Source: Escherichia coli
GTDB lineage: Bacteria; Pseudomonadota; Gammaproteobacteria; Enterobacterales; Enterobacteriaceae
Reading direction: 5' to 3' (one strand)
Assembly (NCBI RefSeq): GCF_048403405.1
Contig: NZ_CP183129.1
Length of the DNA: 64,000 bases
Made by a program: the position numbers. Shown piece after piece: positions 9,001 to 12,000 of this stretch (the first letter of the stretch is position 1; each line of letters starts with the position of its first letter).

Positions 9001-12000
9001 GTGTGGTGATACAACCTGGTACTGGAAGGAATCTTATCAAAAAGAATATGATTTTATATATGGACATTACAGACAACGGACTGATGATGAAATACATTTT
9101 CTCAGCTTTCAGGATAGTAACCGACATGAATTAACTAATGAGCCAGAAGAAGATGCCGATGATTTATCTGTCGGGTATCTGGGGTCATCATGGAGGACAG
9201 AATTAAGCTGGACAACGTCACAGAGAAGTACACATTTTAATTCAATGGCCAGAAGGGGAGTTATTGCTGAATGTTATGCGCAAAAAATAAGAAATTATTT
9301 GTAAACAAGTTCAGGATATATCTACAGCTCTGACATGATTCTCTGAGAGACATGACGGAGTGGCGGGGGCAGCAAGCCAGAACACTGCCTGACATGCTTT
9401 CATCAGACGCAGGTCCTCTCTCATATCCTCTGATTTACTCCAGTAAGGTGATGATCATATCTTTATTTGATAGTACGGTAATGCCAGATAAATACAGACA
9501 CAATGGTAAATAATATAGTTGCAAATAATGCTGCCATAATCAGCGCGATTGCGACACCTGTTTTCGATACCAGCGGCACCAGCAAAGCGCACAGTCCATA
9601 GCCAAGTGTGTGACTGGTAGCGAGCCAGCCCGCGCCTGCGCCATCAGCCAGCTTATCATTCAGTAGAAGTTGATAAGCGGGTGTTGCCAGAGCTGCTCCA
9701 AATGACAGCACTGCACAGCCCGGGTAAAACAACCATAGCTGTTCGGAGAGCATGATAGCCAGACCACCACTCATCAACACTCCGGCACTCAGGAGCAGGG
9801 CCACCGGAGTCAGGCGCTGCGGACGGAGTACCCCGAACTGCGCGATAAGCGCAGCTACTGCGGACAGACCCAACAGCCAGGCCACCTGTTGGCTAATGGC
9901 GGTGGTATCCGTGGCGAACTGGCGAGTAAGGGCAGGCGAAAGTCCAAGCTGCATCATGCTCACCGCCGCAGCCAGTAATATTGCGCAAAGCAGATAAGGC
10001 AGACAATCCCGCTTCAGACTGACGCTCTTGTACTCCGGTGTGGGCTGTGGTGGTGTGCCGGGCAACCGCAGCAGCATCAGCAGCGCCAGCACTGGGGCTG
10101 CCATCAGCAGCCCCAGTGGCGCCAGAGGATGAATGGCCAGCATTGCTGCCGCGCACAGCGGCCCGAATAGCCTGCCGCAACTCAGGCCGGAGCTGATGGT
10201 TGCCAGAGCGGCCATGCGATTCCCTTCTCCTGCTCTCTGCAATGCCCAGACCTGACAGGCTGGCACCATTGCCGACACGGTCAGCCCGTAGGCGATCCGG
10301 GCGATGATTAATATTCCCAGTCCCACCGCTGTTGTTATGGCGCTGGTAGCCATCAGCACGCTTCCCAGCCCTAGCAGGGTAAAGCTTATGCCATATCCTC
10401 CCAGAGCCCACAACACCACAGGTTTACTGCCAGTACGGGAAATTTGCTTTCCCCACCACGGGGACGATGGCAGAAACAGCATTGAGCCAAGCATCAGCAG
10501 GGCAGCCCATACAGACAGACTCAGATTTGTCTGTATGACCAGAACAGGGAGCACAACCAGCAGACCGTTCTGCCCGATACCGAGAAGCCCGGCACTGAAC
10601 GCAAGTGGCCAGCAGGACAGTGGTTTTTGGGGCGTATCTTCGATCCCAGGTGACATTTTAATGTTTCAACTCCATGTATTAATTGTGTTTATTTGTAAAA
10701 TTAATTTATCTGACAATAACATTTCTTATTGATAATGAGAATCATTATTGACATAATTGTTATTATTTTACTGTGTGGGAGCTGTTTGACTATGACCCTG
10801 CCCTCTGAAAAACCAGCCACAGATGTGGCTGCGCAGTGCTTCCTGAATGCACTGATTCGTGAAACCACAGACTGGAAACTGACAGAATACCCGCCAGACG
10901 AATTGATCATCCCGCTGGATGAGCAGAAATCGCTCCATTTCAGAGTGGCTTATTTCTCCCCAACCCAGCATCACCGCTTTGCATTTCCTGCACGTCTGGT
11001 CACGGCATCAGGCAGTTATCCTGTCGACTTTACCACTCTCTCCCGGCTTATTATTGATAAGCTACGGCATCAACTGTTTCTGCCCGTTCCCCTCTGCGAA
11101 ACTTTCCACCAGCGCGTGCTGGAAAGCCACGCCCATACGCAACAGGCAATTGATGCCCGTCATGACTGGACCGCCCTGCGTGAAAAAGCGTTGAATTTTG
11201 GCGAAGCTGAGCAGGCGCTGCTGACAGGACACGCTTTCCACCCTGCGCCTAAGTCTCATGAACCGTTTAACCGGCGGGAGGCTGAACGCTACCTGCCTGA
11301 TATGGCACCCCACTTCCCACTGCGGTGGTTTTCGGTGGATAAAACGCAAATCGCCGGTGAAAGTTTGCATCTCAACCTTCAACAGCGGCTGACGCGATTT
11401 GCCGCAGAGAATGCGCCTCAGTTACTCAACGAATTAAGTGACAACCAATGGCTGTTCCCGTTGCACCCGTGGCAGGGGGAATATCTTTTGCAGCAGGGGT
11501 GGTGCCAGGCACTTGTTGCTAAAGGGCTGATTAAAGACTTAGGTGAGGCCGGCACGTCGTGGCTGCCGACCACCTCTTCCCGTTCCCTCTACTGTGCCAC
11601 CAGCCGCGATATGATCAAGTTCTCCCTGAGCGTACGGCTGACCAACTCCATCCGTACTCTGTCCGTGAAAGAAGTGAAGCGTGGGATGCGCCTGGCACGC
11701 CTGGCTCAAACCGACGGCTGGCAGATGCTACAGGTCCGCTTCCCGACTTTCCGGGTAATGCAGGAGGATGGCTGGGCCGGGCTGCTCGATCTTAACGGCA
11801 ACATCATGCAGGAAAGTCTGTTTGCCCTGCGTGAAAATCTGCTGGTGGATCAGCCGAAAAGCCAGACCAACGTACTGGTCTCCCTGACTCAGGCCGCACC
11901 TGATGGCGGTGATTCGCTGCTGGTTTCGGCGGTAAAACGCCTGAGCGATCGCCTCGGTATCACTGTGCAACAGGCCGCCCATGCATGGGTCGATGCATAC

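Follow-up and report, generated by a model that had tools for sequence, protein, structure and literature searches.

The stretch of 64,000 nucleotides analyzed here (the window) derives from Escherichia coli (assembly GCF_048403405.1, contig NZ_CP183129.1) and is a pathogenicity island of uropathogenic E. coli, of the CFT073 pheV type. The region between the divergent genes shiF and iucA in this window is very probably the chromosomal pathogenicity-island form of the classical aerobactin promoter-operator. It occupies positions 10657-10791, as an earlier note on this DNA had proposed, and is the exact gap of 135 bp (76% A+T) between shiF on the minus strand (9463-10656; 397 aa, WP_000074482.1; an MFS transporter with a Pfam MFS_1 match at E=5.5e-19) and iucA on the plus strand (10792-12516; 574 aa, RefSeq WP_001299620.1; aerobactin synthase). 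Everything in this finding on shiF-iucA, and on the Fur-controlled gene iha located further along the window, is already known and nothing in it is new.

The aerobactin locus is present in 1832 of 5426 complete E. coli genomes. Positions 10300-11300 are 100% identical to CFT073, ATCC 25922 and many further strains, and because of this identity the data published for CFT073 apply directly. Coordinates published for CFT073 (NC_004431.1) were mapped to the window by local offsets, owing to small indels and a missing insertion sequence (IS). Conservation at the aerobactin locus was followed in five lineages, namely the chromosomal locus, a ColV-type plasmid (L005), E. fergusonii and two Klebsiella loci (L007 and L008).

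The control region is dominated by a primary Fur box, GATAATGAGAATCATTATT, at 10731-10749, which differs from the 19-bp Fur consensus GATAATGATAATCATTATC at 2 positions (17/19 matches). Only three matches to the consensus with at most 3 mismatches were found in the 64-kb window, where 0.04 were expected, and two of the three are the two strands of 10731-10749. For scoring, a position weight matrix (PWM) was built from 12 independent CFT073 sites supported by chromatin immunoprecipitation (ChIP) in the published table, from which the iucA and shiF entries were excluded. With this matrix, the primary box scored 22.2 bits and ranked first among the ~64,000 positions of the window, and this score was attained in none of 5000 composition-matched shuffles of the gap. 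In all five lineages the box is located at -61 from the iucA ATG with 2-3 mismatches each, and no block of the gap is better conserved (5 variable columns among 21).

The operator overlaps the predicted core promoter of iucA. The best match to the sigma-70 consensus in the region (10/12) is formed by the -35 hexamer TTGATA (10729-10734) and the -10 hexamer CATAAT (10752-10757), which are separated by a 17-bp spacer, with a TG preceding the -10. This predicted main promoter (10729-10757, plus strand), a consensus-based assignment, agrees with promoter P1 of a published review, according to which P1 holds two Fur-binding sites, one over the -35 and one over the -10. The primary box overlaps the -35, and a weaker, degenerate Fur-like stretch (10749-10770) overlaps the -10.

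The two sites are, however, of very different quality. The earlier note had described a canonical double Fur box, and this wording fits the first box but not the second, as the register that it implied for the latter (10750-10768) gave 7/19 matches and -18.4 bits. Better scores were obtained in the registers 10752-10770 (8.5 bits, 13/19 on the minus strand), 10737-10755 (8.7 bits) and 10749-10767 (5.4 bits). The secondary stretch is also less conserved than the primary box, with 12 of 21 columns variable. Its standing as a secondary Fur site is due to published footprints. In an information-theory study the secondary footprint of iucA was exceptionally long, and the footprinted span of ~100 bp contained 13 overlapping predicted sites. 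The operator is therefore better described as one strong box followed by a degenerate array.

Fur occupancy and derepression in vivo are taken from the published CFT073 data, in which Fur was studied by ChIP sequencing (ChIP-seq) and RNA sequencing (RNA-seq; Banerjee et al., 2020, mBio, PMC7157518). The summit of the iucA peak (NC_004431.1 3469166) corresponds to window position 10768. A Fur ChIP peak is listed for shiF as well, and both peaks are given with the motif GATAATGAGAATCATTATT. RNA ratios between the fur mutant and the wild type were 119 for iucA and 32 for shiF. Thus one Fur box is assigned to both genes and both are derepressed, which bears out shared control by this region. According to Genuini et al. 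(2019), too, shiF and the aerobactin operon have their Fur box and promoter region in common.

Taken together, the following explanation of the region as a promoter-operator is held with high confidence. When iron is plentiful, Fe2+-Fur would occupy the high-affinity box over the -35 (10731-10749) and would next spread onto the weaker adjacent AT-rich repeats covering the -10; according to the literature, the spreading may also reach further upstream. With the promoter covered, RNA polymerase would be excluded and iucABCD-iutA would be silent. The divergent shiF would be repressed by the same Fur-DNA complex, since this complex would fill much of the 135-bp gap. When iron is scarce, Fur would depart and transcription would begin a few bases downstream of 10757, after which IucA would be translated from the ATG at 10792 via the Shine-Dalgarno sequence GGGAG. 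Both the exact transcription start and the extent of Fur spreading are given here as predictions.

Several observations weigh against this explanation. No convincing shiF promoter was found in the gap, where the minus strand gave two weak consensus matches, one of which overlaps the start codon. The secondary box is by sequence alone not significant, as scores of at least 8.55 bits were reached by 9% of AT-matched shuffles (p about 0.09), and it is poorly conserved in Klebsiella. In addition, the height of the iucA ChIP peak (341) is modest for so good a box (PMC7157518). The position of the shiF promoter is accordingly putative, and it is from the single shared ChIP peak and the expression data that we infer co-repression of shiF. 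An Rfam scan of the shiF-iucA gap gave no credible match.

At the shiF end of the region, the shiF-like MFS gene of the Klebsiella lineages is annotated to start 7 codons further in (compared with window positions 10634-10656). The position of the E. coli shiF ATG is CGT in Klebsiella, and the position of the Klebsiella ATG is ACG in E. coli. As a result of these different starts, the gap is 156 bp in Klebsiella compared to 135 bp here.

The gene iha (29075-31165, plus strand; 696 aa), encoding a siderophore receptor/adhesin, would be repressed likewise, via a weaker but conserved Fur site that precedes its ATG by 52-76 bp. This site consists of two overlapping weak 19-mers, at 28999-29017 and 29005-29023. 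The latter, which had been proposed as a weak Fur-like site beforehand, matches the consensus at 13/19 positions on the minus strand and scored 11.5 bits (PWM rank 9 in the window); the former, shifted 6 bp upstream, scored 9.8 bits. The published summit of the iha Fur peak (NC_004431.1 3450905; PMC7157518) corresponds to window position 29036, which is 13 bp from the 29005-29023 site and 39 bp upstream of the ATG, and in the CFT073 fur mutant iha RNA was increased 181-fold. Iron regulation of iha, which the earlier note had also suggested, is thus well founded, and a review citing Rashid et al. (2006) likewise states that iha is repressed in a Fur- and iron-dependent manner.

It is conceivable, though rather unlikely, that 29005-29023 is a chance match in AT-rich DNA and that the contact of Fur with the iha promoter is made in a different register or at a site close by. 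The site has 6 mismatches and 46 19-mers of the window are equal or better; moreover, the published FIMO table gives no motif for the iha ChIP peak. The most distant lineage compared for iha, a 69%-identical paralogue encoding a plasmid TonB-dependent receptor, carries a 16/19 box, AATAATGATAATTATTCTC (21.6 bits), at the homologous position, and this strong box aligns with the register 28999-29017 and not with 29005-29023. However, when the 135 bp preceding iha were shuffled at matched composition, only 1.5% of the shuffles attained 11.5 bits, and the ChIP summit is close by. The core AATTATTCTCA, shared by the two registers, does not vary among five lineages, the most distant of which is 69% identical, and is the most conserved non-coding block upstream of iha. 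Also, the offset of 6 bp between the registers is the spacing reported for footprinted Fur clusters in the information-theory study. Control of iha by Fur from this region is therefore retained and the region is right; its exact register is uncertain. A promoter scan upstream of iha yielded no consensus promoter on the plus strand.

A 60-aa RefSeq "hypothetical protein" (WP_000922606.1; 28954-29136, minus strand) is annotated antisense to the iha Fur site, the promoter and the first 62 nt of iha. It is probably an over-call in AT-rich promoter DNA.

The longest open reading frame (ORF) of iucA starts at TTG 10729, 2 bp before the Fur box, and a further in-frame ATG (10735) falls inside the box. 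The earlier note had taken ATG 10792 as the real start, and this assignment holds. It is the start in RefSeq and the only ATG with a Shine-Dalgarno sequence: GGGAG at 10777-10781 (plus strand) is located 9-10 nt before it, with a predicted pairing to the 16S rRNA 3' end of -6.5 kcal/mol. In all lineages examined, which belong to E. coli, E. fergusonii and Klebsiella, the corresponding ATG is chosen as the start by RefSeq/PGAP. Alignment to a characterized IucA N-terminus, which the earlier note had named as a check, gave the same answer. The K. pneumoniae IucA of PDB entry 5JM7 aligned over its full length (1197 bits), and the methionine at 10792 aligned with residue 3 of the 5JM7 chain, with two extra residues preceding it. 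In keeping with a type A NIS aerobactin synthetase, the protein has an IucA_IucC domain (PF04183, E=1.6e-44) and an FhuF-like domain (PF06276, E=6.4e-34). In a search of NCBIfam no IucA-specific model was found, so that this collection is silent on the N-terminus. The discrepancy between the two starts is already settled by the reference annotation, in line with ATG 10792.

A start at TTG 10786, two codons upstream of the ATG, would give a protein of 576 aa and seems very unlikely. This codon (-6) is in frame, invariant in the five lineages and could use the same GGGAG, but the spacer to the Shine-Dalgarno sequence would be 3-4 nt instead of the 9-10 nt of ATG 10792. In addition, TTG is a weak initiator and PGAP chose the ATG in every lineage. 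The invariance of the TTG is equally explained by constraints on the 5' untranslated region (5' UTR) or on ribosome binding.

The least probable reading is that the long ORF is real, and a minor long IucA isoform is at the same time the sole unconventional reading within 10657-10791, to which we give almost no credence. IucA would then be 595 or 593 aa long, from TTG 10729 or ATG 10735, transcribed for example from a minor upstream promoter, and would carry a hydrophobic N-terminal extension. The frame is indeed open from 10720 and includes both codons, four of the five lineages keep the extension open, and the two long forms have been deposited, the 595-aa form on 235 contigs (among them the original CFT073 entry AAN82075.1) and the 593-aa form on 42. 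Both persist in GenBank and UniRef. However, the 574-aa form, which RefSeq takes, is found on at least 1000 contigs, and the crystallized Klebsiella homologue matches the shorter form.

TTG 10729 is itself the first half of the -35 hexamer TTGATA. TTG 10729 and ATG 10735 are implausible as starts because they are inside the -35 region, so that no transcript from the main promoter would include them, and because neither is preceded by a ribosome-binding site; the predicted Shine-Dalgarno pairing was +0.7 and +0.6 kcal/mol, respectively. In Klebsiella lineage L008 an in-frame TAA is present at -39 from the ATG, which makes the extension impossible in that lineage. Furthermore, the substitutions upstream of the ATG show no codon periodicity. 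In the 63 upstream bases, the variable sites number 10, 8 and 7 for the first, second and third codon position, compared to 9, 3 and 9 in the first 69 coding bases, where the second position is spared. The Ile-rich peptide is an accidental translation of AT-rich operator DNA. The 21 codons upstream of ATG 10792 (10729-10791, plus strand), which give the spurious N-terminal extension LIMRIIIDIIVIILLCGSCLT, are promoter DNA that is open in frame by chance and are non-coding. It follows that the longest-ORF start, which the earlier note had called implausible, is wrong; the reason it had offered needs a slight correction, since location within a Fur operator does not by itself make a start codon implausible.

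Just inside iucA, 22 nt into the gene, a perfect 7-bp hairpin, CAGCCACAGATGTGGCTG, was observed at 10814-10831, followed by a T-run on the minus strand. The ColV allele has a shorter version and Klebsiella has none, so that the hairpin is probably incidental.

These results carry little weight for discovery, as ChIP-seq and RNA-seq have already established, in a strain whose sequence is the same here, that Fur controls shiF and iha. Their practical value lies in annotation quality. Gene callers that choose the longest ORF still yield IucA proteins of 593 or 595 aa, whose first 19-21 residues are translated promoter DNA, and the case is a clean positive control for recognizing an over-extended start from sequence by operator/promoter logic.

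Apart from these loci, the second-best Fur box of the window, GCAAATGATAATCATTGTC, was found at 36614-36632, with 3 mismatches and 20.3 bits. Neither the box itself nor a gene at its position is annotated. The box maps to NC_004431.1 3440895-3440913, 2 bp from a published ChIP summit named "c3597 transposase", the height of which (3620) is ten times that of the iucA peak and exceeds the peaks of fepA, entS and chuA, so that it is among the strongest Fur peaks published for CFT073. In the publication, this peak is absent from the direct regulon table, has no regulated gene assigned to it and is unnamed in the main text (PMC7157518). Read on the minus strand, the box holds a perfect -35 (TTGACA), which is followed by a weak -10, and ~95 nt further on a strong predicted terminator, a hairpin plus U-run, is present (36570-36505, minus strand; -33.1 kcal/mol, z = -5.2). 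Comparison of five variants showed that the -35, the box and the hairpin are all conserved. The whole element (36505-36634) was found in 1426 of the 5426 genomes, on chromosomes and on ColV-type plasmids, adjoining an Rz remnant and iss. An intact prophage carries the element immediately before the holin gene, in antisense orientation to the lysis operon. The Rfam scan of the element gave only sub-threshold resemblance to Esr41 and isrD, and a search of a phage collection gave no match to the part bearing the box.

Tentatively, this element could be the third Fur target of the island, where the box at 36614-36632 would repress a minus-strand transcript of ~95 nt, an iron-responsive small RNA borne by the island and by ColV plasmids; this is put forward as a possibility well short of likely. 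Alternatively, the element may be left over from the control of phage lysis, or it may act as a decoy site. The neighboring position 36722-36844 (plus strand) was assigned to STnc490 (Rfam, 65.5 bits). STnc490 is the antisense RNA of IS200, and the match would thus point to a remnant of IS200 next to the orphan Fur box.

Three further Rfam matches were, like that of STnc490, above the gathering threshold: isrC (27115-27237, minus strand, 97 bits), the ALIL frameshift pseudoknot of an IS3 element (37342-37458, plus strand, 121 bits) and AS-pc02 (38508-38686, minus strand, 58.6 bits). The third-best PWM match to Fur, GTTAATGGTTATTATTCCT, was located within the sialic-acid gene cluster (4057-4075, 14.0 bits), 5 bp from the weak Fur ChIP summit c3636 (3475848, height 22.4), which corresponds to window position 4080. 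When ~31200-32000 was compared with NC_004431.1 3445858-3448109, a 2.4-kb copy of the IS21-family element ISEc10 was found to be absent from the window, and several small indels were observed. Strain M16807 showed 100% identity at both segments compared.

Among the systems closest to the window is CFT073, to which the peaks, motif and fold-changes of the published Fur regulon (PMC7157518) belong; in comparison with this reference, the window has small indels and is without the 2.4-kb ISEc10 downstream of iha. The Fur box was first defined on the aerobactin promoter. The allele of the ColV-type plasmid stands for the pColV-K30 promoter-operator and agrees with the window in its primary 19-mer, -35 and -10 hexamers, -61 spacing and secondary stretch. 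The two alleles are about 93% identical over 401 bp and differ by single-base changes, which are located directly before the -35 and within the 5' UTR and leave the box and the hexamers unchanged. The P1 promoter of pColV-K30 reportedly carries a primary and a secondary Fur site (de Lorenzo et al., 1987; Escolar et al., 1998, 2000).

In Klebsiella, the locus shares the divergent MFS-iucA layout and the primary box at -61, and the K. pneumoniae IucA (5JM7/5JM8) aligns over its full length. The promoter region is, however, about 78% identical, the secondary site is weaker, and the gap of 156 bp and the start codon of the MFS gene differ. Finally, at fepA-fes and fepB-entC one Fur-bound AT-rich region likewise represses two divergent iron genes, and the shiF-iucA region would act in the same manner, with the difference that co-repression is here deduced from one shared ChIP peak and the expression data.

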